The notes below the pieces were generated by a model. That model saw only the letters and a list, made by a program, of their open reading frames with translations, made no database searches and was not told the origin of the DNA. DNA of 64,000 bases, taken from contig JABVCE010000004.1 of the NCBI GenBank assembly GCA_014905635.1, positions 1,674,001-1,738,000 of the forward strand. Direction: 5' to 3'. This document shows, piece after piece, positions 1-56,676 of this stretch (positions are counted from its first letter, which is position 1; each line of letters opens with the position of its first letter). Both the position numbers and the translations under genes were made by a program. This stretch comes from Scenedesmus sp. PABB004. Its lineage: Eukaryota.

Positions 1-3000
1 CGCGGCGCGACGGGCCCGCTGGCCGCGGCCGCCGCCGCGCCCGGCGCGGCGCCCGGGCCCGCCGGCACCAGCCGCGCCAGCTTCCTGCTGCACGCCGCCG
101 GCGTCGGCGCCCGCCACCTGCAGGGCGGCGCCGGCCCGCGCGCGCCGCGCGTGCCCGGCGGCAGCTCCGACGAGCCTTCCGGCGCGGGGCGGCTGGTGGT
201 GGTGGTGGAGGGCCTGCAGACCAAGCTGGTCCCGGCGCCGGGGGCGGAGCGGCCGCGCGGGGTCGCGCGCGCGCGCGCCCCGCAGCGCCAGCGGGCGAGC
301 AGGAGGACAGCGAGGATGGCGCGCCGGTGTCATATGAGCTCGCCTGGCAGGCCGCCGAGCCCGCCGCCGCCAAGGATGGCAAGGAGGGCCCGGCGCAGGA
401 CGCGAGCGCGCGCGCGCGCGACGGCCGGCAGGCGGGCGGCCTCGCGGTCGTGGTGCGCGCCGACGGCGGCGCCGGCGGCGCGCCCGCGGCGGCGCTGCGG
501 CTGCGGCTGCGGCCGCGCGGCGCCGCGGCGGCTGCCGCCTCGTCGGCGCTGGCGGCGCTGCAGCAGGTCAACCGGCTGCAGGCGAGCGGCGCGTCCGGCC
601 TCGCGCTGCAGGCGCAGCTGGCGACAGGTGGCAGCAGGCTGGGCCCGGGCGACGGGCCGCAGGCCGCGACCGACGCCGCCGCCGACCCGGCGAGCGCGGT
701 GTGGGGCCTGCTGCGCACGGAGGCGACGGAGCAGGCAGGGCTGCAGGTCAGCCTTGCCGACAGCGGCTCCGCCGGCGGCGTCACGGCTGCGGCAGCGCAG
801 CGGGAGGCCGCGCCGGGCGCCCTGGGCGCGGCGGCTGCGCGCGGCGGCGCGGTGCAGGTCCCGCGCCTGCTGCCGGCCGCGCTGCCGGAGAGCGCGGAGC
901 ACGTGACAATCACCCCAGAGCCGCGCAGCTCGCTCTCAAACCTGGTGGCGCGGTCGGCCGACCTCGGCCGGGTGCGCGGGCGCTGGGGCAGCCCGTGGCG
1001 GCGCTTGCGCGCTCCGGCGCCCTGCTGCTGACAGCGCTGCCGCCGCGCCGCCCGCAGATGCAGCCTGGGCCAGGCGAGGTGCTGCTGGGCGTGCGCGCTG
1101 TGGGCATCAACTTCAGGGACGTGCTCAACGTCCTCGGCATGTACCCGGGCGACCCCGGCGCCCCGGCAGCGACGTCGCGGGCGTCGTGCTGGCGGCAGGT
1201 GCGCCGGCCGCTGCCGGTCCACGGGGGGCCTCGGCGCACCGGGGGAGCCCCAAGGCTCGCCCCCGACGCGCGCTGCGGCCGCGGCCGCCCCCGCCGCAGG
1301 CGCCGGCGCCGCGCACGCGCCCGGTGACGAGGTCTTTGGCCTCGCCCACGGCTGCCTGGGCACGGTCGTGCGGGGCCCGGGCGACACGCTCGTGCCGCTG
1401 CCGCCCTGCCTCAGCTACGAGGAGGCCGCGACCGCGCCCACGGTCTTTGCCACCGTCTCCGCCGCGCTGCACGGCGCGGCGCGCGTGACCGCGGGCGAGC
1501 GCGTGCTGGTGCACGCGGGCGCCGGCGGCGTGGGCCTGGCGGCGCTGCAGCTCGTCCGCAGCTCCGGCGCGACGCCGCTGGCGACCGCGGGCAGCCCCGC
1601 CAAGCGCGTGCTGCTGCGGCGCCTGGGCGTGGCGCACGTGGTGGGGTCGCGCGACACGGCCTGCTACGCCAGCATCGCGTCGGGCGGCGGCGTGGACGTG
1701 GTGCTCAACTCGCTGACGTCGCCCGGCATGGTCGGCGGCGCGCTGGCCGTGCTGCGGCGCGGCGGTCGGTTTGTGGAGATTGGCAAGCGCGACATCTGGG
1801 GCCCCGCCGCGGTCGCGGCGGAGCGCCCGGACGTGAGCTACAGCCTCGTCGCCATCGACTTTGCGCCGCCGCACGTGCTGCGCCGCGAGCTCACGCGCGT
1901 CGCCGCCATGCTCGCGACCGGCGCGCTGCGCCCGCTCCCTGTCTCGAGCTACGCCCTGAGCTCGGTGGTCGCGGCAATGCGGCTGCTTGCGCAGGCCAGC
2001 CACGTCGGCAAGGTGCGGCGCGCAGCTGCGTGCACAGAGCGGGGGTCCGGCGCGGGCACCCCGCCTGCCCCGTGCGCCGCCCCGAGCGCCGCGCCGCCCC
2101 GTCGCAGGTCGTTGTGTCAGCGCCGCCCCCGGGCGTTGCGGCCGGCGGCGCGGTGCCCGGCGGCCGCGCCAAGGCGCGCGTGGCTGTGACCGGCGGCTCA
2201 GGCGGCCTGGGGCTGCTCATGGCGCAGTGGCTGGCCGCCTCGGGTGCAGTGTGCGAGGTGCATCTGCTCAGCCGCAGCGGCCGCCTGCCGCCCGCCGCCG
2301 CGTCCGGCGCGGCCGGGCTGCTCGCCGGCGGCGGCGCCGCCCCCGGCGCGCCCGCGCTTGGCGCCTGGCTGCTTCGCGGCGCGGTCCCCGTGTTGCTGCA
2401 CGCCGCCGACGTGGCCTGCGCGGCCGACGCGCACGCCGCGCTGCGCTGCGGCGGGCGCGGCTTCGACGTGGTGCTGCACGCCGCGGGCGTGCTGTCTGAC
2501 GGCCTGGTCGCGAGCCAGAGCCCCGGCAGCGTGCGCGCGGTCATGGGACCCAAGCTCGGCAGCGCCGCCGGCGGCGTGCTCGCGGCGGCCGCCGCGGCGC
2601 TGCCGCTGCAGCAGCTCGTGCTCTTCAGCAGCGTCGCCAGCGCGGTGGGCGCGGCGGGGCAGGCGAGCTACGTCGCCGCCAACGCCGTGCTCGACGGCTG
2701 GGCCGCCGCGGGGCGGCGGTCCGGCGTCGCCGTGTCGTCGGTGCAGTGGGGTGCGTGGGCGAGCGCGGGCATGGCGTCGGCGGCGGTCAAGGACCGCCTG
2801 CACCGCCTCGGCCAGGGCGTGCTGTCGCCCGAGGCGGGCCTCGCCGCGCTCGCGGCGGTGCTGCGCGGCGCCGCGTGCGCCCGCGGCGGCGCCGGCGTGG
2901 TCGCCGCCAACCCCTGGCGCTGGCGCACCTACCTGTCCGCGCTGCCGGGCGTGCCCGCGGCGTACGCCGAGCAGGCACGCCGCGCGGCGCCCGGCGCGGC

Positions 3001-3021
3001 GGGCGAGCCGCGCGCCAGCGA

Positions 3022-3057
<36 letters not shown>

Positions 3058-3430
3058 CGGCCCCGCCGCTGCGGCGCCCGCCTGGTCGCCCGCGCGCGTG
3101 GCGGGCGAGGTGCAGGCCGCGCTGCGCGAGGTGCTGGGCCGGAAGCTGGAGCCGAGCGAGCCCTTCATGGCCGGCGGCCTGGACAGCCTGGGCGCGGTGG
3201 AGTATACCAACCTCCTCGGCCGCCGCGTCAACCTGCAGCTCCCCAGCACGCTCGTGTGAGTGCGCGCCGAGTGCGCGGCGCAGGCTGCGCTGTCGCCGTT
3301 GCGCCGCCGCCCTGCCCTGCACGCTGCGCCGCCGACGCCGACGAGCTGCGCGCCCCGCGCCCCGCCCACGCAGCTTTGACTACCCGACCCAGGCGTCGCT
3401 GAGCGAGTTCCTGTCCGCCAGGCTCGCGGC
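1..3430 (+). other. PKS module M1 (partial): DH C-terminal part/linker-ER-KR-ACP
   Basis: YELAWQ linker (~330); ER ~1060-2010 ([16 protein letters not shown]); [39 protein letters not shown] at ~3172. Introns 972-1057, 1199-1299, 2013-2107, 3256-3373. Confidence 0.88.
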
Positions 3431-6400
3431 GCGCCAGTCCGCCGCCGCGGCCGAGGCCGGCGGGGGCGGGGCCGCCGCGCGGCCGCGCTGCCGCCGCCGG
3501 CTCGCGCGCCGCGCGCGGCGAGCGGCGTCGTGGCGCCGCCCGAGACGCCCGTCACCATCCAGGCCGCCCTGCTGTGGCCGCTCGCGGTGCCCAGCGGCAA
3601 CGGCGCCGACGCGGCGGGCATCAGCAGCCTCGCTGGCGTGCTGCCGCAGGGCGACCACGTCACGCCCGTCCTGGGCGAGCGCTGGAGCGCCGATGGCGTC
3701 GGCGACGCCGCGCCGCGCTTCGGCGCCTTCCTGGCCGGCGCGGAGCGCTTTGACGCGGCCGCGTTTGGGCTCTCGCCCGCCGAGGCGCTCTCGGCCGACC
3801 CGCAGCACCGCCTGCTGCTTGCGGCAGCGGCGCAGCTGCTCGCTACGCCCGGCGCGTTTGCCGAGGGCCCCAGCAGCGGCGGCGGCGGCGGCGGCGCGCC
3901 GGCGCGGCGCCTGGCCGACACGGCCGTGTTTGTTGGCATCTCCTGGACCGAGTACCAGGCCCTTGCGCGCGCCTGCGGGCAGCCCCTGGGCGCGAGCACC
4001 GCGCAGGGCGCCGTGCTGAGCGTGGCGTGCGGCCGCGTGTCGTACCAGTTTGGGCTGAAGGGCCCCAGCCTCAGCGTCGACACCGCCTGCTCCAGCAGCC
4101 TCGTCGCGACCGCGCTCGCGCGCCAGGCGCTCGCCGGGCGCGGCGGCGGCGGCGGCGGCGCACCACCGCTCGCCGCGTCGTCGGCGCTGGTGGGCGGCAT
4201 CAACATGCTGCTGCTGCCGTCCACGACGGCCATGTTCCAGAAGGCCGGCATGCTCGCGCCCGACGGGCGCTGCAAGGCGCTCGACGCGGCCGCCGACGGC
4301 TACGTGCGCGCCGAGGCGGCGGCGATGGCGCTGCTGGGCGCGGGGCCGTGCGACACCGCGCTGGCGGTGCTCGCGGGCGCGGCGGTCAACCAGGACGGCC
4401 GCAGCAGCGGCCTCACCGCGCCCAACGGCCCCGCGCAGCAGGCCGTGCTGCGCGCTGCGCTGGCGGACGGCGGCCTGGCGCCCGCGGACCTGGCAGGCCT
4501 CTCCATGCACGGCACGGGCACGCCCCTGGGTGCGTGCTGGCTGCAGGGGCGGCGCAGCGGGCCGTGCGCGCCGCCCTACACTGCCCCACGCTGCGCCGCT
4601 GTCTGGCGCCCAGCGCTGCTCGCTCACGCTCCGCCCCGCCGCCGCCCGCTCCCCGCGCAGGCGACCCGATCGAGGTCGGCGCGGCGCTGCAGGTCCACGC
4701 CGGCCGCCCGCTCATCCTGCTGGCTGCCAAGACGCTGGTCGGCCACGCCGAGCCGGCGGCGGGGCTCACCAACGTCATCTTTGCGGCGCACCAGGCGGCC
4801 GCGGCCGCGGCGGTGCCGCTGCTGCACCTGCGCACGCTCAACCCGCACGTCACGTCGGCGGTCGCGAGCACCGGCACGGCGGGGCTGCTGGCGGCGCCAC
4901 GCGGCGCGATGCCGCTGCAGCGCGCCGCCGACGCCGCGGCGGCCGAGGGCGCCGCGCTCGCGCTCGGCGTGTCGGGCTTTGCCTTCCAGGTGAGGCGGGG
5001 CGCGTGCCCTCACTCACTGGGGGGAGGCGGGCCGCAGCGCGACGGCCTCCCCTGCTGAGGCCGGCGCTGGCACTTGGCTCGTCTGCCGCCCCTGACCCTC
5101 GGCCGCCCGGCCGCCACCGCAGGGCACCAACGCGCACGCCATCGTAAGCGCCGCGGCCCCCGCCGGTACCGCGCCCTCGCTGGCGCGCCTCGCGGCGCGC
5201 CGCGGCTGGGACGGAGCCGGCGACGGCGCGCTCGCGTGGTCGGCGCGCCGCGTGTGGGTGCACCCGCCGGCCTGCGGCCTCGTGTCGTCGCTGGTGCGCG
5301 CCGGCCCTTCCTCGGGCGCGCTCTTTGAGCTGCACCTCTCCGCGGCGCACCTGGCACACGTGTGGGAGCACCGCGTCGCGGGCGCGGTGCTGGTGCCGGG
5401 CGTGCTGCTGCTGGAGATGGCCGCCGCCTGCCTGGCGCTCGCTGGTGGCGCCGACGGCACCGTCGCCGGCGCGGCGCTGCCAGCCCTCAGCGGCGTCGCC
5501 ATCCCCGCGCCCTGCCTGCTGCCAGAGCTGGCTGCCGACGGCGGCAGCGCCGGCGCGGGCGTCGTGCTGCGCTGCCTCGTCACGCCGCACAGCGTGCAGG
5601 TCGCCAGCGCAGGCGGCAGCGGCAGCGGCGGCGGCGCGACGCGCCGCCTGCACATGCAGGCGCGGCCCATGGCTCTCGCGCCAAGCAGCGCGGTGCCGGC
5701 GGCGGGCCGCCCCAGCGCGCTCGCGGCACTGCTGCGCTCGCTGCCCGGCCGTGCGGTGGCGGAGCCCCCAGCTCGCTCCGCTGTCGCCACTGTGGCCGCC
5801 AGCGCGACCGCTCTGCCGGGCTGCGTCGGGCCAGCGCAGCTCGACGCCTTGCTGCAGACGGCGGCGGTGCTGCGCGGCGCGCTGGCGCCGCGCCTGGCCG
5901 CGCAGCTGCAGGTGCCCGCGGCTGCCGAGCTGTTCGTCTCGTGCGCGGCGGCCGCCGATGCAGCCAGCGCCCTGCCGCGGCTGGCGGCCGCGGCGGTGCG
6001 GCCCGGCCTGAGCGCGGAGCGCATGGTCGCCGACTTCACCCTCGTCACCGCAGCGGGCGCGCCCGAGGGCGTCTCGGCGCTGTGCCGCATCGTGGGCCTG
6101 CAGGCGCGCCGCGCAAGCGCGGCGGCGCTGGTGGCGGTGCCACCGCTGGCGGCCGCGTCGCCTGCACCGCGTGGCGAGGTGGCGGGCGAGGAGCAGGAGG
6201 AGGAGGACCTTCACGCTCAGTCGATGGTGTTTGAGGCAGTGCGCCTGGCCGACACACCCGCGGCGGCCGACGCCCCGGGCGCCGCCGCCTGCCGGCTGAC
6301 CCTGCGCGGCGCGGGCGGCCTCGCCACGGCCGCGACCGGCCTGGCGGTGGCGCAGCAGGCGGCAGCGCTGCGTGCGGCCGGCCTGCAGCTGAGCGCGCCG

Positions 6401-9400
6401 CTCGGCGCCGCGGACGCTGCTGGGTTCACCGGCCTGGCCAAAACGCTCGCGACCGAGGCAGGCATGGCCGTGGCGCTGCACACGGACGCGCGCGCTGGCT
6501 TTCAGCTCGCGGCTGGCCACCAGCGCGCCGCCCAGGGCGGCGCTGAGTTTCTGGACGAGGCATACACCAGGTGCGGGGGCGGGAGCGAGCGTCCACGGGG
6601 GCTGGGACCGCCCCGCGCCGGCCGCACCGCGCTGCCCTTTGCCCTGCTCGCGCCCTGCTGGCCACCGCCGCCCCTGCCGCGCAGCGGCAGCGTGGCACTC
6701 AGGGAGGTGCTGCTTCCGCGCCCGCCCGGCGGCGTGCTGACGGGAGCCTTCCGCTTCGAGCCGCGGCCGCGCGGCGCGCTGAGCAGCCTCGTCCCCGTGA
6801 GCCTGCCGGCGTGCGCGGCAGTGGCGGCGGGCACGGCGTCCTGCCCGCCCGGCCAGGTGCAGCTTGCGGTCCGCGCTGTGGGCATCAACTTCAGGGACGT
6901 GCTCAACGTCCTCGGCATGTACCCGGGCGACCCCGGCGCGCCCGGCAGCGACGTCGCGGGCGTCGTGGTCGCCGACGGCGGCAGCGCCAGCGGCGGCGCG
7001 GGCCTGGCGCCCGGGCAGGCCGTGTTTGGCCTGGCCGTGGGCGCGCTGGGCAGCGCGGTGGCGTGCTCCGCGTCCACGCTGGTGGCCATGCCTCCCTGCC
7101 TCAGCTACGAGGCTGCGGCCAGCATGCCCACGGTCTTCATCACCGCCCAGATGGCGCTGGGCGCCGTCACGGCCGTGACTGCGGGCGAGCGCGTGCTGGT
7201 GCACGCGGGCGCCGGCGGCGTGGGCCTGGCGGCGCTGCAGGTGCTGCGCGGCGCCGGCGCGACGCCGCTGGCGACCGCGGGCAGCCTCGCCAAGCGCGCG
7301 CTGCTGCGGGGCCTGGGCGTGGCGCACGTGGTGGGGTCGCGCGACACGGCCTGCTACGCCAGCATCGCGGCGGGCGGCGGCGTGGACGTGGTGCTCAACT
7401 CGCTGACGTCGCCTGGCATGGTCGGCGGCGCGCTGGCCGTGCTGCGGCGCGGCGGTCGGTTTGTGGAGATTGGCAAGCGCGACATCTGGGGCCCCGCCGC
7501 GGTCGCGGCGGAGCGCCCGGACGTGAGCTACGGCCTGCTGGCCGTTGACTTCCTGCCGGACGGCGTCGTGCACGCGGCGCTGCGGGCCGTGGCGGCGGGC
7601 GTCGCGGCCGGGCAGCTGGCGCCGCTGCCGACCGTGAGCTACGGCCTGGCCGCGGCGGCGGCGGCGCTGCGGCAGATGAGCCAGGCGCGGCACGTGGGCA
7701 AGGTGGTGGTCAGCACCTCCCTGCCCGCGGCGGCGCCCGCGGCCGGCGCGGGCCGCGTGCTGGTCACCGGCGGCCTGGGCGCGCTGGGCGGCCTGGTGGC
7801 TGCCTGGCTGGCAGGCCAGGGCGTGCGGCAGCTGCACCTGCTGGGCCGCAGCGCGTGCCTGCAGGCGGGCGGCAGCGCGCAGCGCCTGTGCGCCGCCGGC
7901 GGCTGCGCCAGCCAGGTGGTGGTGAGCCAGTGCGACGCGGCGGCTGCCGAGGACCTTGCCGCTGCGCTGGACTGCGGCGGCGGGCTGCTGCCCGTCGAGG
8001 TGGTGATCCACGCCGGCGGCGTGCTGGCCGACGCCACGCTGGCGGCGCAGCAGCTGCGCGGCGTGCGCGCGGTGGCGGGCGCCAAGCTGCCCGCCGCGCA
8101 GTGCTTTGCTACGCTGGCGGCGCGGCAGCCCGTGCGCAGCGTGGTGCTGTTCAGCAGCGTCGCGAGCCTGCTGGGCTCGCCCGGGCAGGCCAACTACGCC
8201 GCCGCCAACGCGGGCCTGGACGCGGCCGCGGCGGCCGACCGCGCGCGCGGCCTCGCCACGATTGCCGTGCGCTGGGGCGCCTGGGCAGGTGCGGTGCGGG
8301 CGCCCCCCAGTGTGCGGAACGGTCCACGCGCGGGCCGGCGCAGGGCGGCGGGGCCCGCGGCGCTGCCCGACGGCCTGCGCGCCCGCCGCACCGTCGCACA
8401 GGCGCTGGCATGGCCTCCAGCGAGGCCGTCAAGTCAAGGGTTGCCTCCCTCGGCATGGGCCTCGTCTCCCCCGCCGCCGGCCTGGCCGCGCTCGAGCGAC
8501 TGCTCGCCGCGCCCGCGCCCGTGGTCGCCGACGTCGTGCCGTTCCGGTGGCGCCGCCTGCTGGCGCGCTACCCGCGCGTGCCGGGCCTTCTCGCTGAGAT
8601 GGCCGAGCGCAGCGCAGCGCCGCCGACGCCGGCGGCAGGGCCGACGCCGGCCGCCGCGCGCCCGGCAGCGGCGCTGCGCGTGGCGCGCGGCGCGGCAGCG
8701 CCGACGGTCGACGCCGCGGGCGAGCGCGGGCGCGTGCTCGCGTCGGTGTCGGCGACGATCGAGGGCGTGCTGGGCCGGCCCGTCGCGCCGGACGAGCCGC
8801 TCATGGCGGCGGGGCTGGACAGCCTGGGGAGCGTGGAGCTGCGCAACAGCCTGGAGGGCGCGCTCACGCTGAGCCTGCCGCCCACGCTGGTGCGCCCCGC
8901 GCGCGGCGCGCGCGCTGCGAGCCCGCCGCCGCGCGGCCTCGCTAGCTCACGCCCCCTGCCGCGCCCCGACCCGTCCTGCCCCGGCCTGCCCGCTAGTCCT
9001 TTGACTTTCCCTCGGCGGCTGCAATCGCCGACTACGTGGCAGCGCGGCTGGCCGCGGCGCGGCGCGGCGCCGACGCGCCGCAGCAGTCGCCACCGCCGCC
9101 GGCGGCCGGCGACGCCGACGACGAGGACGCCCTGTGGTGGGGCCTCGGCGACGGGCAGGCCCCGCGCGCTGCGGGCGCGCAGGCGGTGGCGCGCGGCACC
9201 GCGGCCGCGGCTGTCAGGGAGGAGGAGGTCGAGGCGGAGGTGGCGGCCGCGGTCGCTGGCATCCTGGGCCGGCCCGTGGAGCGCGGCGCACCGCTCATGG
9301 CGTCCGGCCTCGACTCGCTCGCAAGCGTGGAGCTGCACAACGTCCTCACGGTGCGCTGACGCTCTGCGCGGGACGCGCGCGCGCCGCCGGCCCGGCGCAT

Positions 9401-36400: not shown

Positions 36401-38244
36401 CGTCGCTCGGCATCGGCGCGCTGACCCCTGCCGCGGGCCTCGCCGCGCTGGAGGGCGCGCTGCGCTCGCGCGGCGCTCTCGGGTGCGCCCCTCGGGGATT
36501 CTGGGCTCGCGGGGCGCGCCAGGGCCGCGCTGCTGGCTGCCCACCGCAGCCGCGCGGCCTGCGCAGGCGGTCGTCCGCGCTCGTGGCGAGCCCAGCGGTG
36601 CTCGCCGCGGCGCCATTTGACTGGGCCACGGTCCTCGCTGGCCAGCCGGCGGCGCCGGGTCTCCTGTCCGAGTTTGCCGGCGCCGCGCGGCGCCGCGCGA
36701 CGGACGCGGCCGGCGCTCCGCCGCGCGCAGCGCGCCGCGGCGGCCTGGCGGGCCTGCGCGGCGAGGCGCGGCGCGCGCACCTGCTGGACGAGGTGTCGGG
36801 CGTGATTGCGGGCCTGCTGGGGACGGGTGCGGCGTGCTGGGGCGCCGCGCCGGGGCGCCGTGCGGGGGCAGGAGGGGGGGGCTGCGGCGCGCGCGCTGCG
36901 CCCCACGCGCTGCCGCCGCGCCCGCAGGCGTGGCCGCCGACGCTCCGCTCATGGACAGTGGGCTGGACAGCCTCGGCGCGGTGGAGCTGCGGAGCAGCCT
37001 CGAGGCACGGCTCGCAGTCAGCCTGCCGCCCACGCTGGTGCGCCCTGCGCGCGGCGCGCGCCCGCCCGGGGGCCGGGGGGCGCCGCGCGCTCCGCCGGCA
37101 GTGCGGGCGTGTGATGTGATCTGGCTGCGCCGCCCCGCGCGCAGGTGTTTGACTTTCCCTCGGCGGCCGCCATCGCCGCCCTCATCGACGAGCGCCTCGC
37201 CGCGTCGCAGCCGGGCGAAGAGGGCGACGCGGGCGCCGAGGCGCCGCGGCAGCGCGCCGCGGCACGCGGCCCCGCGCCGCCGCGCCGCGGCCTCGCGCCG
37301 CCCGGCGACCCGCGCGCCGGCGCGGCGCTGCTCGTGTCGGCGACGCACGGCCGCTTCCCGGAGCCGGCCGCGACCGCGCCTGCGGCGGCGCACTGCGCGG
37401 CGGCGGGGCTGCTGCGCGACGCCATCAAGCCAGTCCCTGCGCAGCGCTACGACGTGGAGCTGGCGCTCACGCCCGACGCGCCGGCGCGCTTTGGTGGCTT
37501 CCTGCCCGGCGTGCAGGCGAGTGATCAGGCCAGCGCCGCGCCGCCTAGCAGGCCTGGCCGCGCTCCCGCTCACGCCCCGCTCGCCCGCGCGTCTGCGCCG
37601 CCGCAGGACTTTGACGTCGCGCCGTTTGGCCTGTCCGTGGCCGAGGCGGCCATGGTCGACCCGCAGCAGCGCCTGCTGCTCGAGGCGGGCGCCGCGCTGC
37701 TCGCCGCGGCGGCGGCGCCGCTCGGTGGTGCGCCGGCCGCCGGCGGTCGGGGGTGCGGCGTGTTTGTTGGCATCTCGACCCCCGACTACGCTGACATCAA
37801 GAAGGCAGCCACGCCCATCGGGGTCTACAGCGCGACGGGTGCGGCGGGGCGGCGGGCGGCGCGCGCGCGGCGCGTCGCGCGTGCTGCACGGCCGTGCGCG
37901 CTGAGCGCGAGCCCCCCGCCTGCCACCCCCGCTCCCCTCTTGCGCGCGCGCAGGCTCCGCCATCAGCGTCGCCGCGGGGCGGCTCTCGTACGTGTTTGCC
38001 CTGTCCGGCCCCGCGCTGGCGATCGACACCGCCTGCAGCAGCAGCCTCGTCGGCGCGCACAGCGCGGCGCTGAGCCTGCGCTCCGGGGGCTGCGAGGCGG
38101 CGCTCGTGGCGGGGGTCAAGGCCATCCTCACGCCCCACCTCTCGGCCATGTTCACGCGCGCAGGTGGGCCGGCCTCGCCTGGCCCGCTGGCAGGGGGAGA
38201 GCTCGGCGCGCGGGCCGCGCAGCCCAGGCGAAGGCCGAGCCGCC

Positions 38245-38278
<34 letters not shown>

Positions 38279-47200: not shown

Positions 47201-50200
47201 CGATCGCGCCGCTGCCGAGCGTTGTGCACGACCTGGGCGCCGTCGCGGCGGCGCTGCGGCAGATGAGCCAGGCGCGGCACGTGGGCAAGGTCGTGGTGCG
47301 CGCTGCGCCCGCGGCCGTGCCGCAGCTGCAGCAGGCCCCGGGCGGCGGCGCGGTGCTTGTGGTGGGCGGCACCGGCACGCTGGGCTGCCTGATGGTCGCC
47401 TGGCTGGCGGAGCAGGGCGTGGCAAGCATTCCCATACTCAGCCGCACGGGGCGGCTCAGCCACGCGCTGGCCGAGCTGCTGGCCGGCAGCGCGGCGCACC
47501 AGGCGGCTGTCACTGTGCTCGCGTGCGACGCCGCGCGCGGCGCCGACCTGGACGCGCTGCGGCGGCTGCTGGCCGGCGGCGCGCCGCTGCTGGGTGTGCT
47601 GCAAGCGGGCGGCGTGCTCGCGGACGCAACGCTCGGCAGGCAGACCCTGGCCGGCGTGCGGCAGGTGGGCGCGGCGGCGGCGGGGGCGCACGGGGACAGA
47701 CAGATAGACAGATAGGGCGCAGCTGGCTGCGCTCCGTCGCCGCCGCTGACCCTCGGCCCGCCCGACCTGACCGCAGGTGTTTGCTCCCAAGCACGGCGCC
47801 GCCACGCGCCTGCAGCCGCTCTTGCAGCAGCACCCGGTCAGCCACCAGGTGCTGTTCAGCAGCGTTGCGAGCCTGCTGGGCGCGCCCGGGCAGGCCAACT
47901 ACGCCGCCGCCAACGCGGGCCTGGACGGGCTCGCGGGCGCGCTGTGCGCCGCGGGCCTGCCAGCGGTGTCGGTGCAGTGGGGCGCGTGGGCGGGCGGCGG
48001 CATGGCGTCGGCCGACGCGTCCACCGCGGCGCGCGTGGAGCGTCTGGGCATGGGCCTGATCGCCCCGGGGGCGGGCCTCGCCGCGCTCGAGGGCGCGCTC
48101 GGCCGCTTTGCGGCGCCCGGGCCGTCCGAGGGCGGGGCGGTGGTCGCGGCGGTGCCCTTTGTCTGGCGCCGCTTCCTGGCGCGCTTTGGCGGCGCCCCGC
48201 CGGCGCTCTTTGCGCGCGTCGCCCAGGAGGAGCTGGCCGCCGGTGCTGGCGGCGCGCGCCAGAGCCGCAGCGCGCGCAGCGCTGGTGTCACCGCTGCTGG
48301 TGTGGCCGCGCTGGTGGCCGACACCGTGGCGGCCGTGCTCGGCCCCGACGTGCCGCCCGATGAGCCGCTGATGGCGGCGGGGCTGGACAGCCTCGGCGCG
48401 GTGGAGCTGCGCAACGCGCTGCAGGTGCGCCCGCGCGCAAGCCAGCCAGCCGCTACACCGCGCCCCTTCCACCCCACACACCCGCTCTGCCCTACCCTGC
48501 CTCCGCCGCCGCTGCCGCCGCCAGGCGGCGCTGCCGAGCGGCAGCGCGGAGCTGCCGGCGACGCTGCTGTTTGATTACCCGACCATTGGCGCCGTCAGTG
48601 CCTTCATCGCGGCACAGGTGCGCAGGGCTCAGAGGGAAGGGCGCGGGCGGGCGGGCGTGACGCGTCGCCGCGCGGCCGGCGCGGTGTGCGCGCTTGGGCG
48701 GCAGGGGCTGCGACCACCTGCGCTCGCGGCCGCTGTCCACTCCAGGTCGCCACGCCCGAGGCTGCCGAGGCGCCAGCGGTTGCAGTGCCGGCCCCAGCGC
48801 CTGCGCCTGGCGCCGGCCTGCGCGGCGCGCTGGCGGCGCCACGGCCGCTGGTCGCCGTCGTCGGCGCGGCGGTGTGCAGCCCCGGCGGCGCGATCGACGC
48901 GGTCGTCGCGCGCGACGCCGTGGCGGCTGTGCCGCTCGCGCGCTGGGACTGGGACGCGCTGGCCGCCGGCACCGCCGCCGGCGCCGCGCTCCCGCCGCGC
49001 TTTGGCGGCTGGCTGGAGGGCGTGGAGCTGTTTGACGGCGCCGCGTTTGGCGTGAGCCCGCTCGAGGCGGGCCTCATGGACGCGCAGCAGCGCTTGCTGC
49101 TGGAGCTGTCGCTGCAGGCCCTGCACGGCGCCGCGGGGGCGAGCGGCGCGGCGGGCGTGCTCGACGCGGTGGCCGGCCCCGCCGCCGCCGCCTGCGTCGC
49201 CGTCGGCATCGCGAGCGCCGAGTGCGTCGCGCTGGCGGCCCGCGCCGCGCTGGCAGCCCGCCCGCGCGCGCGCGCGCGCGCGCTGCCGCCGCCGCCGCTG
49301 CCAGACCGGCCCACTCACGCGCCCCTGCCCCCGCGCCTGCGGCTGCAGGTACAACAACTGGCTGCTGCGGCGCACCGGCGCGGCGCCCAGCGCCTACGGC
49401 GCGACCGGCGGCGCGCTCAGCGTCGCCAGCGGGCGGCTCGCCTTCACGTTTGGCCTGCGCGGCGCGGCGCTGTCCATCGACACCGCCTGCTCCAGCAGCC
49501 TCGTCGCGGCGCACTTTGTCGCGGGGCAGCTGCGCGACGGCACCTCGCGCGCAGGCCTGGCGGCGGGCGTCGGCATCCTGCTGTCGCCCGAGCCGACGGC
49601 CATGTTCCAGAAGGCCGGCATGCTCGCGCCCGACGGGCGCTGCAAGACGCTCGACGCGGCCGCCGACGGCTACGTGCGCGCCGAGGCGGCGGGCGTGCTG
49701 CTGCTGGAGGCCCTGGGCGGCGCTCGCGCGGAGCGCGCGGCACCGCCGCTGGCGGTCGTGCTCGGCAGCGCGGTCAACCAGGACGGCCGCAGCAGCAGCC
49801 TCACCGCGCCCAACGGCCCGGCGCAGCAGGCCGTGCTGCGCGCGGCGCTCGCGGACGGCGGGCTCGCGCCGCGCGACGTCACGGGCCTGCAGCTGCACGG
49901 CACGGGCACGCCGCTGGGTGCGTGCTGTCGCGGCGCCGTGCGCGCGCGCCGCTGCCGCCGGTCTCCCCCATGCACTGACCGCCTCCGTGCGGCCTGCTGA
50001 CCCGCCGCTGCCGGCCGCCGCCCGCCGCCCGCCGCCCGCGTAGGCGACCCGATTGAGGTCGGCGCGGCCGCGGCGGTCCTGCTCGCCGGCCCAGGCCGCG
50101 CGCAGCCGCTGCTGGCAACGGCTGGCAAGAGCTGGGTCGGCCATGCGGAAGCGGCGGCCGGCGTGGCGGGCGTCGCGCACGCGCTGGCGGGGCTGCGGCA

Positions 50201-53200
50201 GCGCTCCGCGCAGGCGCTGCTTCACCTCACGGCACCCAACCCCCACTGCGGAGCAGCGCTCAGAGCCGCGCCGGCGCAGGGCCTGGCCGCGCCCTGGGCG
50301 CTGCCGCGCCAGGCGGGCGGCCTGCCGCTCGGCGGCCGCGGCGGCGGAGGCGGGAGCGGCGCCCTCACCACGGGCGTGAGCTCGTTCGCGTTCCAAGGTG
50401 GGGGCGGCGCGTGCGAGAGCGCGAGCGGGGCGCGCCGGCCGAGGCTGCTGCGCTCGCGCCTGCGCTAGCACGCGCCCGCTTGCCGCCGAGGCGCCCCGCC
50501 GCCTGCCCGCCCTGCCGCCGCCATCTCAAGGAACCAACGCGCACCTGCTGCTGACTGCGAATGGCGGCGGCGCCGCGGGCGGCGCGGCCGGCGCGGCCGC
50601 CCCGGCCGCCGCGCTGCCGTGGCAGCGCGCGCGCACCTGGCCGCTGCCGCCCGCGCACCTGGCGCTCGCGCATGTCGCGAGCGCGGGCGCAGGGCGCGTG
50701 GTGCTGCAGGCGCAGCTGGGCGCGCCCGGCCTGGCGTTCCTGCGAGACAACGTCGTGCTGGGGCAGGCGCTGCTCCCCACGGCGGCGCTGCTGGAGCTGG
50801 GCGCTGCGGCGGCGGCCGCGCTGCTGCCGCCGGCGCCCGGCGCCGGCGCCGGCGCCGCCGGCGCGCTGCGCGCCTGCCTCGCGCAGGTCGTCATGGGCGC
50901 GCCGCTGCGCCTCGACGGCGGCGGCGGCGGCGCGACGCTGACTGTCGGCGTGACGCTGGCCAGCGGCGCGGTGGAGGTTCAGACGGCCGCCGGCGCCGGC
51001 GGCCGGCTGCGGACGCACATGGCAGCGCGCACCGGGGCGGCCGGCGGCGCCGACGCCGGCGGCCGGGTGGCGCTTCCGCGCGAGGCGCTGCCGCCGATCC
51101 CTGCACCGCTGCGGGCGCTGCTGGCCGGCCAGCACGCGGCACTGCTGCTCGCTGTGGCGGCGGCGCCCTGCGTGTCGGCCGCGGCGCTTGTGCCCGCCGC
51201 CGGTGTCGGCGAGGCCTTCGTGCTCCACCCAGCGCTGCTGGAGGCGGCGCTGCAGACAGAGGCACTCGCCGCACCGCAGGGCGGTGCGGCCCCGGGCGGC
51301 GTGCAGGTCCCCGCCACCATCGGCGCGGTGCTGCTCGGCGGCGGCGGCCGCGCGGCCGCCGCGCACGAGCTGCTGGTGTCCAGCCTGCCGCAGCGCGCGG
51401 CCGGCCGCCCCGCCACCGGCACGTGGCTCCACGGCGCCAGCGCCGGCGGGGCGGCGGGCGCGCTCCTCGACGCCGAGTTTCGACCGCTCCGCGGCGACGC
51501 CGGCGGCGCTGCCGCGGGCGCCGCCGCCGCCGTGCCGGCGGGCGAGGCCGACGCGGCCGCGGCCAGCCCGCTGCTGGAGCTGGGCGAGGCGGAGCGCCGT
51601 GTCTACCTGACGGCCCAGATCAGCGCAGAGGTGTGGCTGCGCTGTAATGGGGCTGCGCGCGCGCGCGCCGCGCGGTGCGCGCCGCCGCCTCACGGCCGCC
51701 GCCTCGCGGCCGCCGCCTCGCGCGCGCGCACCGCAGGTCCGCAACATGCTGGGGCACCACGTGCCGCCGGACGAGCCGCTCATGGCGGCGGGGCTAGACA
51801 GCCTCGGCGCGATGGAGCTGCGCAGCAGCCTGGCGGCGGCGCTCGGCGTCAGCCTGCCGGTGACGCTGCTGTACGACGCGCAGACGATCGGCCAGCTCGC
51901 CGCGTACATCAGCGAGGCCCTCGCCGCCAGCGCCGCCGCGCCGGCAGAGCCGGGCAGCGAGCCGGGCGACGGCGACGCGCGCGGCGGCGGCGCCGAGCCG
52001 GCGGCAGGTGCGCCGGCCGGCCGAGCGAGCTGCTCAAGCTGCTGCGCGGCGCGCCGCCGCCGCGGCCGCTCTTCCTGGCGGCGCCGGGCGTGGCCAACGC
52101 GCAGTCGGCCTACTTTGCGTTCAGCGCCTGGCTGTCCTGGAGCGACCAGCCGATCTATGTGCTGGAGAAGGACAACGACCTCAGCATCGCCGAGCTCGCG
52201 GCCGCCAACGTGCGCGACATCCTGCTGGTGCAGCCCGAGGGGCCGTACCTGATCGGCGGCCACAGCTACGGCGGCGCCGTCGCGGTCGAGATCGCGGGCC
52301 GCCTCGAGGCGGCGGGGCACACCGTGGGCCTTGTGCTGGTGCGCGCGCCGCGCGGGGGCGCGGGGGGGCGGCGGCGCGCGCACGCGACGCACGCACGCAC
52401 GCGTACACACACGCGCGCATGCACCTGTCTGCCCTGCCCGTCTGCCGTGTCCGCAGATCATGGACACGCCCAAGAAGGAGCAGATCCGGGCGCTGCAGCC
52501 CAGCGCAGAGGCGGCGACAGAGGAGGATTGCCTGGAGCTGCTCGAGATGATCCTCGGTGCGTGCCGCTCCATGGGGGCAGGCGCCGTCGCGGCTGACTGC
52601 CCGGCGCGGCCGGCGCGCTGCGGGACCACGGGGCCGCCCCGCGCGCTCACGCCGCGCCGACGCCGCGCCGCCGCCCGCCGCCAGGCGCGCTCGGGCGCGA
52701 CGCGGTGGGCCTGGGCGCGGGCATGGCGCACCCGCGCGAGAGCGAGGAGTGGCAAGGCATGACGCTGCGCGAGAAGTGAGAGCCTGGGCGGCTGCGCGGC
52801 CGCGGCGCGCTGTGTGCTGCTGCCCGGCTGCCGCCGCCGAGCGCCGCGTGGCCGCGGCCGCGGCGCGCAGGTACGAGTTCTTCGCGCCCATCTGGCGCGT
52901 GATGCGGGACGACAACATGACCGTGGACGAGGTGGCGCGCCAGGTCGAGGCCGTCGCGCTCGCGGTCAAGCAGGGCAGCGCCGTCAGCGACCTGCGCCAC
53001 CACACCTTCACCACGCGCCTGCGCGGCGCCGAGGCACGCGCGCGCGCGCCGCGGGCTGCGTGCCGCCGGCAGCCCACGCCCAGGCGGCGGTCGCTGACCG
53101 CTCCTCCCGCCCCCGCCGCCTGCTGCTGCTGGGCAGGTGGTGTATTTCAGGGCCTCCACCCCGGGCGCGTGCGACTACGTGAACGACGGCCGCGCGTGGC

Positions 53201-56200
53201 GGCACAGCCACGGCACCTGCTGGGCGACGCTCGCCGACGACCTTACCGTCGTGGACGTGCCGGGCGACCACTTCAGCCTGCTGCGCCAGGCGCGGCGGCC
53301 GCGGACGCGCGCGCGGCGCCGCAGCACGCACAGCACTCGCAGCGCGGCGCAGCGGCGCGGCGCAGCGGCGCGGCGCAGCGGCGCGGCGCAGCGGCGCGGC
53401 GCGGCCGACCGCGCCGCTGCGCCGCGCAGGACCCGGCCGACATGGAGCCGCTGCTCGCGATGCTGAAGGTGAAGCTCGGCGCGTGGGGCTGGGCGGAGGC
53501 CATCCGCCGCGACGGCCGGCCGGGGCAGTGGCACGGCGCCGGCGCGGCGGAGGCGGCGGCGGAGCTGGACGACTACCTGCAGCGCATGGGCGTGCGGTGC
53601 GACGCGCGCCGCGCGCGCGGAGCCGGGCGCCGATCGCCACGCCGCCGCGCCGCGCGGGCTCACACCGTGCGCGCCCGCGCAGGGACGGCGCCGTGCGCGC
53701 GCGCCTCGCCGCGGCGCTGCCGGTGGCCGACCTGGAGGAGGTGTCCGCGACCGCCGCGCACGCGCGCCCCGCGCAGCTCATCCGCGCGCTGCCGCGGCCG
53801 GCCGGCGCGCCGCCGCACGACGGCGCGCTGCCGCCGCTCGTGGTCGTGCCCGACGCCGAGGCGCCGCTGCCGCACCTCACGGCCGCGCTGGAGCGCCTGG
53901 CGCGGCCCGTGTTTGTGCTGGGCATGCCGCCGGCCAGGCAGATGGCGCAGCTGCGCAGCGTGCCAGCACTCGCGCGCCTCTTCTGCGCCGCCGTGCGCGC
54001 GCGCGCGCCGCGGGGGCCGCTGCTGCTCGCCGGCATCGGCGCCGGCGGCGTGGTGGCGCACGAGATGGCGGTGCAGCTGCAGCGCGACGGCGAGCAGGTG
54101 CGAGGGGACAGCGGCGCCCGAGGCTCACTCCGCGCGGCGCAGCTCCGAGCGCGCCGGCGCCCTGCCGCCGCCGCGCCCCAGCCACCCGCCCGCTGCCTCG
54201 CGCCGCGGCTCAGGTCCCGGTGCTGCTGCTGCTGGAGAACGCGCCCCTGCGCGAGGCGGCCGACCTCACGGCGGCGCCCTGGTTCACGCTGTATCACCTG
54301 CTGTCGGACGCGCGCCCCGACGTCGACATGCGCGCCTGGGCCGCGCGCGCCAAGGGCCTCGCCGCGGGGCCGGCCGGCGTGGAGCGCCAGCTCGACGCCG
54401 CGGCCGCGCTCTGCCCGCGCGGCATGGACGGCGGCGCGTGGGAGGTCGCGCTCGCAGACGCGCTGCGCGGCGCTGCGCGCGCGGGGTACCAGTGGGAGGA
54501 GCGGCTCAGCAGCTGGGTGGCGCTGTGGCAGCTCCTCGCCGCCGCGCCACGCGACCAGGCGGGCGCGGGGGGCGCGCCGTCGTCCCCAGACGGCGGCGCG
54601 CCGCCGCCGCCGCCCCCAGACGGCAGCGAGGCCGGCAGCGGGCCCAGCCCGCCCGGCAGCGACGCCGCCGGCGGTGAGGGCGGCGGCGGCGGCAGGGCTG
54701 GGGGCGTGCCTGGTCTGGACGAGTTCCTGCTGGAGATGTCGGCGCTCGAGGCTGACCCGGGCGCGCAGCTCGACGCCGCGGCGGCGCACCGCCCGCCGCA
54801 CATGAGCGCCGCCGACTGGGACGCCGAGGTCGGCAAGGTGAGACGCGAGACGCACGGCGCGTGCGCCGGGCGCGCGGGCGGCACGGCGCCGCTGACTGGC
54901 CGCTGCCGCCGCCGCCGCTGCCGTCACTCACGCCGCGCGCCCGGTGCTGCCCGGCGCCGCGCGCCAGCTCCTGGCCCAGGTGAGCTACCTGAAGGCCATC
55001 TGCGCCAGCTACGTGCCCGCCCACGTGCTGCGCCCCGGCGCGACGAGCGCCGTGCTGTGCCACGGCGCGGCGCACAAGTCGCTGCGCCACGTGCTCGACG
55101 GCTGGGCCGCCGGCGCGCTGCGCCCGGTCGCGCAGCTCGTGCAGCCGCTGCGCATGCTGACCTGGCGCGACACCCACCCGAGCGCGCGCGACCTCGACGC
55201 GGCGCTCGACGCGGCGGCGCGCGGCGCGTCGAGCGCGGCCGCAGCGCGCGCCGCGCTGCTGCGCGGCCTGCCCGCGCGCGCGCTGCCTCCGGGCGCCGAG
55301 GTCAGCGGCGGCGCCAGTGCCAGCGGCGGCGGCGTGAGCGTGACGGCGCTGAACCGCTTCTGCACGGACAGCGCCGTGCAGCCGCACGTCGAGGAGGCGG
55401 CCGCGCTGGCGGCGACCGCGGCGCTGCCGCCGGGCACCGACATGACGCGCGAGGACGTGGACGCCGCGCACACGGCCGCGCACGCGGCCGCGCTTGCGGC
55501 GGTGCAGCACGCGACGCTGCTGAGCACGCTGCCGCTGTGGCTGGTGCCCGGCGAGACGGGCGCCTGCAGCGCCGCGCTCGCGCACGCCGCGTCGCTGCTG
55601 CCGATGCCCGCGTACGGCCTGGCGCTGCCGGACGGCGACGACGCGCGGCGCCGGCTGCCGGACGCCGCCGGCGGCGACCCCGCGGCCTGGCTGCCGGGCC
55701 TGACCGCGGCGTGCGTGGCGCCGCTGCTGACGCTCCAGGCGAGCGGGCCGTTTGTGGTGGTCGGGTGCGGCGCGTTCAGCTGCATGCTGGCCGCCGCGAT
55801 GGCGCGCGAGCTGGAGCACGAGCTGCAGCGGGGCGTGGTGCTCGTGCTGCTCGACGGCCCGCCCGTGCCGCCGGCGGCGGTGGCGCTGCCCGACCCGGGT
55901 GCGTGTTCCGTGTTTGCGCGCGCGCGCGCGCGCGCCTGGCCCCGGCGCGCGCCGCCACCTGGCCCCCCCGCTCACGCGGTTACCACCCTGCGCACCCACA
56001 CACTCGCCCCGCAGGCATCTATGGTCTGTACCAGCTCGCGCGCGACAGCGGCACGCTGCCGGCTGTCACGGCCGACGGCTTGGTCGCCCAGCCGTTTGCC
56101 GCGTTTGCGGCGGAGCTGTCCGCGCAGCTGGCGGCGGCCATGGCGGCCGCGGGCGTCGCGGCGGAGCTCGTCCCCGCGCCCGCGGCGCAGGCGGGCGGGC

Positions 56201-56676
56201 CCGGCGGCGAGCTGCTGCTGCTGCCGGCGCCGGCCGAGCCGCGCGCGGCTGCCGCGCTTGAGGCGGCGCTGGAGGAGGTGGCGGCGGCGCGCTTCGGCGC
56301 GCTCCTCGCGGCCAGCGGCGGCGCGGGCGGCGCGCCGGCCGGCCCCGACGCGGCCGGCGGCGACGCGGGCGCGGCGACCGCGCGGCTCGCGGCCAACGTG
56401 CGGCGCATGCTGCGCGCGTGCCGCCTCGCGCGCGGGCTGTGGTCGCCCGCGCGGCACGCGCCAGAGTTTGCCTACTGCGGCCGCGCCGTGCTCGTGCTGA
56501 GCGACGACGCGGAGGGCCGGGCCTTCCTGCTCGCGGCGCGCGAGAGCTGCCAGGGCGAGCTGAGCCTCGTGCCGACGGCGCTCGCGCACGGCGAGGTGCT
56601 GACGGGCGACGACGAGCAGCAGGTCCTGCTCGTTGCACTGGTGGACGGGCTGATGGAGATGCTGGCGCTGCTGTGA
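1..56676 (+). CDS. Giant modular type I polyketide synthase, AT-less (trans-AT type), 5'-truncated; >=10 modules, then TE and two TE-like domains; ~68 introns
   Basis: Repeating KS motifs ([13 protein letters not shown], GHxEPAAG), DH (HxxxGxxxxP, DxxxQ), ER ([22 protein letters not shown]), KR (TGGxGx[11 protein letters not shown]) and ACP (GLDSL). Exons can be joined through GT/GC-AG introns up to TGA at 56674-56676, except at ~5 one-base frameshifts. No AT motif (GHSxG plus HAFH/YASH) was seen. Confidence 0.95.
3530..9545 (+). other. PKS module M2: KS-DH-ER-KR-ACP-ACP
   Basis: [10 protein letters not shown] (~4078), HGTGT (4508), GHAEPAAG (4741); [12 protein letters not shown] and LDALLQ; ER ~6860-7710; KR ~7755-8450; ACPs [12 protein letters not shown] (~8812) and [12 protein letters not shown] (~9306). 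Confidence 0.92.
6874..8230 (+). repeat. ER-KR cassette, copy in M2 (family A)
   Basis: Near-identical nucleotide sequence to the copies in M3, M4 and M5; offsets 6274, 5554 and 5800 nt between successive copies, taken from matching antisense ORFs. Confidence 0.92.
9600..15245 (+). other. PKS module M3: KS-DH-ER-KR-ACP
   Basis: DTACSSSL (~10345), HGTGT (10771), [22 protein letters not shown] and [12 protein letters not shown] and KR in exon 11514-15011; [17 protein letters not shown]. Confidence 0.92.
13058..14670 (+). repeat. ER-KR cassette, copy in M3 (family A)
   Basis: Near-identical to 18604-20220 and 24404-26020. Confidence 0.92.
15340..20825 (+). other. PKS module M4: KS-DH-ER-KR-ACP
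   Basis: DTACSSSL (~15956), HGTGT (16382), [22 protein letters not shown] and [12 protein letters not shown] and KR in exon 17356-20466; ACP GLDSL at ~20598. Confidence 0.92.
18598..20294 (+). repeat. ER-KR cassette, copy in M4 (family A)
   Basis: Near-identical to 24398-26094 over ~1.7 kb. Confidence 0.92.
20960..26535 (+). other. PKS module M5: KS-DH-ER-KR-ACP
   Basis: DTACSSSL (~21685), HGTGT (22111); [14 protein letters not shown] and [12 protein letters not shown] and KR in exon 23141-26359; ACP GLDSL at ~26315. Confidence 0.92.
24398..26094 (+). repeat. ER-KR cassette, copy in M5 (family A)
   Basis: Few substitutions versus M4 (e.g. KRDSW vs KRDIW, WLARQG vs WLAGQG). Confidence 0.92.
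26660..31400 (+). other. PKS module M6: KS-DH0 (inactive)-KR-ACP, no ER
   Basis: KS triad intact (DTACSSSL ~27348, HGTGT ~27774, GHS|E). The DH site reads [14 protein letters not shown] (no His) and PVLAAALQ (no Asp). No ER motifs. [33 protein letters not shown] at 31141. Confidence 0.9.
31495..37205 (+). other. PKS module M7: KS-DH-ER-KR-ACP
   Basis: DTACSASL (~31967), HGTGT (32384), [22 protein letters not shown] and FDAWLQ; ER ~34795-35620; [19 protein letters not shown] at ~36960. Confidence 0.9.
37320..42935 (+). other. PKS module M8: KS-DH-ER-KR-ACP
   Basis: DTACSSSL (~38025), HGTGT (38567), GHTEPAAG (38823); [14 protein letters not shown] and [12 protein letters not shown] ~40770-41610; [19 protein letters not shown] at ~42709. 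Confidence 0.9.
40154..42547 (+). repeat. ~2.4 kb linker-ER-KR direct repeat, copy 1 (M8; family B)
   Basis: Almost identical to 45846-48239 (offset 5692), including intron 41973-42084. Confidence 0.93.
43060..48617 (+). other. PKS module M9: divergent KS-DH-ER-KR-ACP
   Basis: NTACSSSL (~43733), HGTGT (44141), GHLEGAAG (~44406), [11 protein letters not shown] (~44710); [14 protein letters not shown] and [14 protein letters not shown] near-identical to M8; ACP GLDSL at ~48380. Confidence 0.9.
45846..48239 (+). repeat. ~2.4 kb linker-ER-KR direct repeat, copy 2 (M9; family B)
   Basis: Only a handful of visible substitutions versus copy 1 (e.g. ELDPAV vs ELDLAV, FARVA vs FAHVA). Confidence 0.93.
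48840..51930 (+). other. PKS module M10: KS-DH0-ACP (no KR, no ER)
   Basis: DTACSSSL (~49479), HGTGT (~49896), GHAEAAAG (~50139); DH-like [13 protein letters not shown] (His to Asn) and [10 protein letters not shown] (Asp to Glu); [14 protein letters not shown] at ~51791 follows with no Rossmann motif between. Confidence 0.88.
52021..53490 (+). other. Thioesterase domain with intact Ser-Asp-His motifs
   Basis: [23 protein letters not shown] (GHSYGG at 52258-52275); [19 protein letters not shown] (~53250-53283). Confidence 0.9.
53347..53400 (+). repeat. Intronic tandem repeat, 13-nt unit gcgcagcggcgcg, ~4 copies
   Basis: Seen directly, inside intron 53290-53429. Confidence 0.7.
53790..55230 (+). 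other. Second thioesterase-like alpha/beta-hydrolase domain lacking the nucleophilic Ser
   Basis: [48 protein letters not shown] align by eye with TE1 [48 protein letters not shown]. Confidence 0.75.
55520..56676 (+). other. Third thioesterase-like domain lacking the GxSxG Ser; C-terminus of the PKS
   Basis: [49 protein letters not shown], and terminal [12 protein letters not shown]. Confidence 0.7.

Follow-up and report, generated by a model that had tools for sequence, protein, structure and literature searches.

Does the window studied here, a stretch of 64,000 nucleotides from Scenedesmus sp. PABB004 (GenBank assembly GCA_014905635.1, contig JABVCE010000004.1, positions 1,674,001 to 1,738,000 of the forward strand), carry one giant polyketide synthase (PKS) gene or several smaller ones, and what would its enzyme make? 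An initial annotation had read positions 1 to 56676 as a single gene for a synthase of at least ten collinear modules that lacks acyltransferase (AT) domains and is rich in enoyl reductases (ER). In the present analysis, in which gene model and splicing were predicted from the DNA sequence, window positions 1-56676 of the plus strand most probably cover the 3' portion of one nuclear gene from a chlorophyte with a very high GC content. The encoded enzyme has a good chance of being an AT-less (trans-AT-type) modular type I PKS of the same kind as CrePKS1 (Cre10.g449750, Chlamydomonas reinhardtii) and VcaPKS1 (Volvox carteri).

Gene structure and composition of the locus

The series of PKS domains extends on the plus strand from about nt 1000 to about nt 52300, and its reading frame switches every 1-4 kb, which is readable as the boundaries of several adjacent genes or of the genes of a contaminant bacterial trans-AT cluster. 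The gene was modelled with a dynamic programme of our own, which uses codon log-odds and splice-site matrices, both trained on the locus. The last model runs from the window edge to a TGA stop codon at 56674-56676 and comprises 71 exons, 70 introns and 16,307 residues. Its introns are of the GT-AG type, measure 74-167 nt (mostly about 85-135 nt) and follow the consensus G/GTGCG...CGCAG/G, in which slashes mark the splice sites. For instance, a ketosynthase (KS) intron reads ctgg/GTGAGC...CGCGCAG/gcgaccc and interrupts a conserved KS motif, and an intron in the ketoreductase (KR) of modules 8 and 9 reads cag/GTGGGC...CCGCAG/gtg. Judged by these sites, the frame changes along the locus are introns. 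Consensus introns of about 100 nt bridge each frame change and split motifs alike in eight of the nine KSs, no non-coding gap in the model is larger than an intron of 167 nt, so that no intergenic space exists in the locus, and a neighbouring protein-kinase gene of the eukaryotic type is likewise split by frames. On this intron evidence, the readings as a bacterial locus or as several genes were rejected and are scarcely credible. The single gene of the initial annotation is thus upheld, and so are its end at the TGA, with other genes directly downstream, and its origin from a eukaryotic green alga, which is indicated by the short GT-AG introns and by the top matches from Monoraphidium, Tetrabaena and EukProt, likewise AT-less.

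The GC content is 76-82% in each 2-kb bin of the window and about 80% in the locus, the frames are open on both strands, and 255 open reading frames (ORFs) of at least 150 aa are found in six frames. Since long ORFs arise by chance at 80% GC, ORF length and the absence of stops are weak evidence of function. In the modelled frame, GC at third codon positions (GC3) reaches 91% versus 66% at second positions (GC2), and 55 of the 70 splice junctions are strong at both ends, the other 15 being weak. The TGTAA polyadenylation signal has three matches in the window, none of them near 56.7 kb, and is not above chance. A homology-weighted gene model with frameshift edges was discarded: low-complexity Ala/Gly/Pro matches, spread over every frame and covering 52,104 codon starts, produced 18 spurious frameshifts. 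Antisense frames of up to 1560 aa lie opposite PKS exons (e.g., 32266-36948, minus strand), and these long frames are taken to be a by-product of the 80% GC.

Domain order, missing acyltransferase and catalytic motifs

Pfam scans were made on two sets of plus-strand ORFs (67 and 83), taken from stop to stop and no shorter than 120 aa, and then on 64 modelled exons, while motifs were checked on the spliced gene model. As shown in Table 1, Pfam gives nine KS (in modules 2-10, abbreviated M2-M10), eight ER, nine KR, and acyl carrier proteins (ACPs) in 10 of 10 modules, with 11 GxDSL-bearing ACPs in total. The domains are ordered as a first module cut by the window edge and ending in ER-KR-ACP; four modules of KS-DH-ER-KR-ACP, where DH is the dehydratase; one of KS-KR-ACP; three more of KS-DH-ER-KR-ACP; and a last one of KS, dead DH and ACP, followed by a thioesterase (TE) and two pseudo-TEs. 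It can be seen that the earlier count of at least ten collinear modules agrees with both the Pfam scans of ORFs and exons and the motif checks, with module 2 amended from one ACP to two. M6 had correctly been called KR-only: it reads KS-KR-ACP, its exon 28450-31185 has no DH or ER Pfam match at E<=0.05, and its remnant aligns with the sister DHs with both catalytic residues (His and Asp) replaced. The downstream neighbours are also listed in Table 1; the minus-strand Pfam scan covered ORFs from 55975 onward.

Table 1. Modules, terminal domains and downstream neighbours of the PKS gene, in window coordinates.
Feature	Position	Strand	Parts	Basis or remark
Module 1, cut by window edge: linker, ER, KR, ACP	1..3414	+	ER: ADH_N fragment 1058-1198, ADH_zinc_N/_2 ~1527-2012; KR ~2180-2761; ACP ~3110-3250; GGVG and SYVAAN motifs present	Pfam + motifs
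Module 2: KS-DH-ER-KR-ACP-ACP	3417..9524	+	KS 3644-4528 + 4663-4830; DH from ~5300; ER 6848-7711; KR 7751-8287; tandem ACPs 8746-8886 and 9237-9341	Pfam + motifs
Module 3: KS-DH-ER-KR-ACP	9527..15233	+	KS 10051-10791 + 10916-11017; DH 11637-12482; ER 13122-13985; KR 14025-14561; ACP 14910-15229	Pfam
Module 4: KS-DH-ER-KR-ACP	15236..20809	+	KS 15707-16402; DH to ~18141; ER 18676-19539; KR 19579-20115; ACP 20568-20675	Pfam
Module 5: KS-DH-ER-KR-ACP	20812..26527	+	KS 21084-22365 (in exons); DH 23141-23788; ER 24476-25339; KR 25379-25915; ACP from 26249	Pfam
Module 6: KS, degenerate DH-like remnant, KR, ACP; no ER	26530..31388	+	KS 26889-28190 (in exons); KR 30211-30738; ACP 31072-31185	
Module 7: KS-DH-ER-KR-ACP	31391..37187	+	KS 31547-32635; ER 34788-35622; KR 35686-36363; ACP 36930-37037	Pfam; DH by alignment only (FDAWLQ)
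Module 8: KS-DH-ER-KR-ACP	37190..42924	+	KS 37595-38912 (in exons); DH 39192-40139; ER 40758-41606; KR 41655-42300; ACP 42640-42783	Pfam
Module 9: KS-DH-ER-KR-ACP	42927..48600	+	KS 43379-44483; DH 44857-45834; ER 46450-47298; KR 47347-47992; ACP 48314-48617	Pfam + NTACSSS
Module 10: KS, dead DH-like domain, ACP	48603..51911	+	KS 48851-50228; DH-like 50668-51372; ACP 51737-51901	Pfam + motifs
Thioesterase 1 (TE1), active-looking	52008..53596	+		PF00975 E=7e-14 on exon 52009-52338
Two degenerate TE-like domains (TE2, TE3) + stop codon	53683..56676	+		PF00975
Methyltransf_16-like ORF	56934-57914	-		Convergent, begins just past PKS stop
Alpha/beta-hydrolase-like ORF	60876-61589	-		Downstream neighbour
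Split protein-kinase gene, eukaryote-type	62995-63998	+		Downstream neighbour, itself broken across frames

The absence of AT domains from the modules, already claimed in the initial annotation, is borne out by two profiles. None of the 64 exons matches PF00698 at E<=0.05, nor does any plus-strand ORF at 1e-5; an AT profile of our own, built from 80 of the 226 AT domains found in 112 bacterial hits, gives a best E of 0.65 over the six-frame ORFs of at least 20 aa in the window, with the nucleophile elbow of TE1 among its top window matches. As a control, the latter profile matched 113 of 120 control proteins and 0 of 6 algal-like proteins. In addition, KS and DH are spaced by only about 100-130 aa in the alignment, which leaves no room for an AT domain; the KS-flanking remnant is short, with weak PF16197 matches in the modelled exons. 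Likewise, no AT is encoded among the ORFs of the 7 kb downstream of the gene.

The catalytic motifs are intact. Cys-His-His is present in all nine KSs, where M9 reads NTACSSS and M10 reads DTACSSS, HGTGT and KSWVGH; the ER motif HAGAGGVG is found in 8/8 ERs; and the catalytic Tyr is found in 9/9 KRs, as SYVAAN in M1 and as NYAAAN in the others. The KRs also carry a VLAD or VLSD motif, which we take to be the LxD signature of B-type KRs. In agreement with the initial annotation, which had seen intact DH motifs in seven modules, His and Asp of the DH are kept in M2-M5 and M7-M9, the DH of M7 having Ser for the Gly of HxxxGxxxxP and no Pfam DH match. Its statement that ER-KR is intact in eight modules stands as far as the motifs are concerned, but ER1 is one base short as assembled. 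Similarly, M10 was called non-reducing, which is consistent with its lack of a KR and its dead DH-like domain, but this domain (PKS_DH_N 3e-9, PS-DH 3e-6; Asn for His, Glu for Asp; LLEAALQ) and the TE after the ACP had been overlooked. TE1 shows the motifs GHSYG and VPGDHFSLL. Meanwhile, TE2 (PF00975 E=4.8e-9, exon 53684-54097) and TE3 (E=0.048, exon 54980-55897) match each other by blastp at E=1.5e-10, TE2 matches TE1 at E=6e-6, and both have Gly at the nucleophile Ser position of GxSxG, reading GIGAG and GCGAF.

Near-identical ER-KR blocks, one-base deficits and the terminal end

The ER-KR blocks of M2-M5 (6848-8289, 13050-14748, 18597-20300 and 24397-26094) share 97-99.5% DNA identity, the highest value being that of M4 versus M5 (99.5% over 1698 nt), and M8 and M9 share 87% over 3672 nt. 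The KS parts of M2-M5 are far below the ER-KR blocks, with about 76-83% DNA identity, and between their DH parts blastn yields no match reaching 400 nt. Such a patchwork of near-identical ER-KR and diverged KS suggests that the ER-KR blocks were homogenised, either by gene conversion or by the replacement of cassettes, and speaks less for simple duplication of whole modules. An intron lies at the same place in the KS motif of eight of the nine KSs (4530, 10793, 16404, 22133, 32406, ~38589, 44163 and 49918), from which it follows that the modules were duplicated as intron-bearing DNA. The KS of M6 is without this common intron; instead, 108 nt are inserted in frame behind its DPIE, with GTCAGC...GCAG at the borders of the insert.

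Several observations weigh against the reading as a functional CrePKS1-like gene. In a direct comparison with the seven sister ERs, ER1 is one base short near nt 1162 (~1155-1170): it reads ggcgccccggc where all seven read ggcgcgcccggc, and the frame moves from 2 to 1 inside the motif. KS8 reads cccttgGTGAGC at 38581-38590 where the sister KSs read cccctggGTGAGC, its exon/intron boundary (38585-38590) having one G fewer; its consensus donor puts DPIE out of frame, and the only frame-keeping donors are a weak GC or GTCTCC, which add 7-14 residues to the KS motif. At the ACP10-TE1 junction (51881-52070) the frame has to switch, and GTACAT is the sole donor that allows this. Furthermore, 11 of the 15 weak junctions have no canonical in-frame alternative, so the gene as assembled needs unusual splicing or base corrections to read through. 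An automatic scan for adjacent high-scoring segment pairs in different frames returned no candidates, the shifted stretches being too short for it. The dN/dS values between modules (0.53-0.88) do not demonstrate constraint; given the mosaic blocks and a GC3 of 91%, they were judged uninformative. Besides, P0001 and P0004, two of the algal relatives described below, carry an extra terminal KS module (DTACSAS/HANGT), and the window has no member of the HANGT clade; the orthology to CrePKS1 is supported by the domain strings in print and by further proteins of chlorophytes; and collinearity is assumed, while both the product and its role in the wall are inferred.

The deficits at ER1 and KS8 and the ACP10-TE1 junction may be indel errors of a GC-rich assembly or real lesions. 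In a rival reading, the locus would be a decaying or mis-assembled copy, a pseudogene or a collapsed longer PKS1 gene, and would not encode a working enzyme as written. This is unlikely, though it is the explanation to which the two one-base deficits, the GTACAT donor and the 11 junctions would belong; about 1100 residues of P0004 (ACP10-KS11) are absent exactly at the ACP10-TE1 junction, repeats of 97-99.5% identity are prone to collapse in assembly, and stop-free frames mean little at 80% GC. Against it stand the motifs of 9 KS, 8 ER, 9 KR, 11 ACP and TE1, which are all intact, the excess of GC3 over GC2 in the modelled frame, and the 55 junctions with strong consensus sites. Single-base errors in runs of G or C are, moreover, a frequent fault of assemblies.

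The terminal end differs from that of the relatives. HANGT/HSNGT is described as the motif of the terminal KS in CrePKS1 and VcaPKS1 in additional file 1 of Shelest et al. (PMC4661987). These two synthases have two non-reducing end modules, the last KS being of the HANGT type, whereas the window gene has one, with HGTGT; a 3-oxo instead of a 3,5-dioxo end and a chain shorter by two carbons would be predicted from this difference. The window tail aligns to residues 705-1316 of P0004 (KS10 and the DH-like domain) and then jumps to 2442-2672 (last ACP and TE, the latter 78% identical to the window TE), and the poor-donor junction coincides with the site of the extra ACP-KS(HANGT) segment in the relatives. 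The initial annotation was incomplete at this point, having missed both the TE domains and the extra terminal module of the relatives. The missing ACP10-KS11 segment may reflect real module loss or assembly collapse. We tentatively consider, as a possibility that is rather less probable than its negation, that this lineage lost the last HANGT KS module by fusion of KS10 and its dead DH to the final ACP-TE, releasing a 3-oxo acid that gives a long-chain hydroxy methyl ketone on decarboxylation, with ongoing gene conversion keeping the ER-KR blocks of M2-M5 near-identical. If true, it would be a natural edit of one module that alters the head group of a wall-polymer monomer. If the loss is real, the gene would also be a naturally occurring variant from which the function of the unusual HANGT ketosynthase might be worked out.

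Relatives, predicted product and comparison with known synthases

The best protein matches of the enzyme are P0001 (EukProt), P0002 (Monoraphidium minutum), three JGI proteins and P0063 (Tetrabaena socialis). AT is absent from all six algal-like proteins checked (P0001-P0005 and P0063), five of which are the five best matches, and the bacterial matches all carry AT. P0001 (4131 aa), P0002 (4004 aa), P0004 (2680 aa) and P0063 (4351 aa) are partial or fragmentary gene models with only 41-57% overall identity to the window. The KS spacing of P0063 shows that exons are missing in its model, which makes the numbering of the Tetrabaena KSs unreliable; an AMP-binding domain lies at its residues 174-663. 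In a KS tree of 26 rows, M7 pairs with P0002 KS465 (support 100/97), M8 with P0002 KS2002, M9 with P0001 KS1395 and P0002 KS3581, M10 with P0001 KS3160 and P0004 KS895, and M2 with a Tetrabaena KS, each of these pairings having support of 100/97 to 100/100, while M3-M6 form one cluster. Window and relatives also have motifs in common, namely NTACSSS, which is diagnostic of the M9-type KS, and the combination of DTACSAS and KSWHGH, which is diagnostic of the M7-type KS.

Under collinearity, malonyl units would be loaded on every ACP by a free-standing malonyl acyltransferase encoded elsewhere, and the starter would be activated by an AMP-ligase/ACP loader upstream of the window, as in CrePKS1. 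The starter would be extended ten times, once per module. Extensions 1-5 and 7-9 would be fully reduced to CH2-CH2, extension 6, with a KR bearing the LxD motif of the B-type, would halt at a beta-hydroxyl that ends at C11, and extension 10 would leave a 3-oxo group, because KS10 looks competent, a KR is missing from M10 and its DH-like domain is dead. Release by TE1 would then yield an 11-hydroxy-3-oxo acid of the starter plus 20 carbons. Free 3-oxo acids readily decarboxylate to methyl ketones, and the released acid may accordingly be converted to such a ketone with loss of CO2; esterification via its hydroxyl is another possible fate. The collinear prediction of the initial annotation (11-OH, 3-oxo, at least C22 if acetate-primed) does follow from the domain map, and its alternative, in which M10 does not elongate, is not favoured, Cys-His-His of KS10 being intact. 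To judge from the pks1 mutants of Chlamydomonas, the product is probably used to build a resistant wall, either of the cell or of the spore.

A real enzyme could also work non-collinearly, with modules skipped or reused, or with near-identical modules serving as a ruler of variable length, and would then make another product. Non-collinear use of modules occurs in bacterial trans-AT systems, and with the KSs of M3-M6 clustering and the ER-KR blocks near-identical, chains of different length may be treated alike by the modules. The number and order of the modules (5, 1, 3), however, are kept in Chlamydomonas and Volvox according to the domain strings in print, and each of KS7-KS10 has its partner in a KS at the matching position of other chlorophyte proteins; the conserved order and the position-wise pairing speak for the importance of each module position. 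Non-collinear use is accordingly improbable here, and the collinear programme is retained.

It has been reported that the multimodular PKSs of chlorophytes are nearly all of the trans-AT type, that they evolve by duplication of modules, which are 89-98% similar to one another, and that they show duplications of ACPs (Shelest et al. 2015, BMC Genomics 16:1015, PMC4661987). In Additional file 2 Table S2 of that paper, CrePKS1 begins with AMP-ligase-ACP3, followed by five KS-DH-ER-KR-ACP (modules 2 and 4 with ACP2) and KS-KR-ACP, and ends with three KS-DH-ER-KR-ACP, KS-ACP and KS-ACP-TE; the VcaPKS1 string is the same except for a terminal TE2 (PMC4661987). Like these two, the window gene has five modules with full reduction, one with KR only, three more with full reduction and a non-reducing end with TE; the ACP doublet of module 2 is at the same position as in CrePKS1, and multiple TEs terminate it as two terminate VcaPKS1. 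From this common 5-1-3 programme, the doublet and the multiple TEs it follows that M1 of the window should be the true first extension module. By architectural analogy, only the loader, KS1 and DH1 would then be missing upstream, a CrePKS1-type AMP-ligase-ACP3 loader lying outside the window. The function of Chlamydomonas PKS1 is reportedly the subject of Heimerl et al. 2018, Plant J 95:268.

According to two further accounts, PKS1 of Chlamydomonas, which the tough wall of the zygospore requires, is induced after mating, and its mutant has no central wall layer and dies on desiccation (PMC6912462), a phenotype known for Chlamydomonas only, and long aliphatic polyketides have been proposed as building blocks of the PKS1-dependent wall (PMC9832785). 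The features that the initial annotation implied to be new are therefore not so: for the PKS1 family, a single gene without AT, ER in line in most modules, a lone KR-only module and a possible lipid of the wall are all already published, the ER-rich programme having been printed for CrePKS1 and VcaPKS1 (PMC4661987) and aliphatic polyketides of resistant walls having been tied to PKS1 (PMC9832785 and PMC6912462). In the literature searched, no description was found of a missing terminal module, serine-less TE repeats or mosaic ER-KR homogenisation. A further orthologue with the 5-1-3 programme indicates that the position of the mid-chain hydroxyl is conserved across Chlorophyceae-like algae, and this conservation usefully constrains the search for the monomer of a family tied to desiccation-resistant walls. 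Otherwise, the locus is an ordinary case of AT-less algal megasynthases evolving by module duplication, as set out in PMC4661987.

As in bacterial trans-AT PKSs, such as bacillaene synthase, the modules of the window gene have no cis-AT and are presumably served by a free-standing AT. In the bacterial systems, ER often acts in trans. In contrast to them, the present gene is a eukaryotic one with introns, carries ER in cis in 8 of 10 modules and has a simple module set resembling that of fatty acid synthases, without methyltransferase or beta-branching domains. CrePKS1 and VcaPKS1 are closer: they are trans-AT, each is a single giant intron-rich gene, as here, and they likewise have no methyltransferase domain, while the dead DH-like domain in M10, the two serine-less TE-like domains and the GC content of about 80% set the window gene apart from them.

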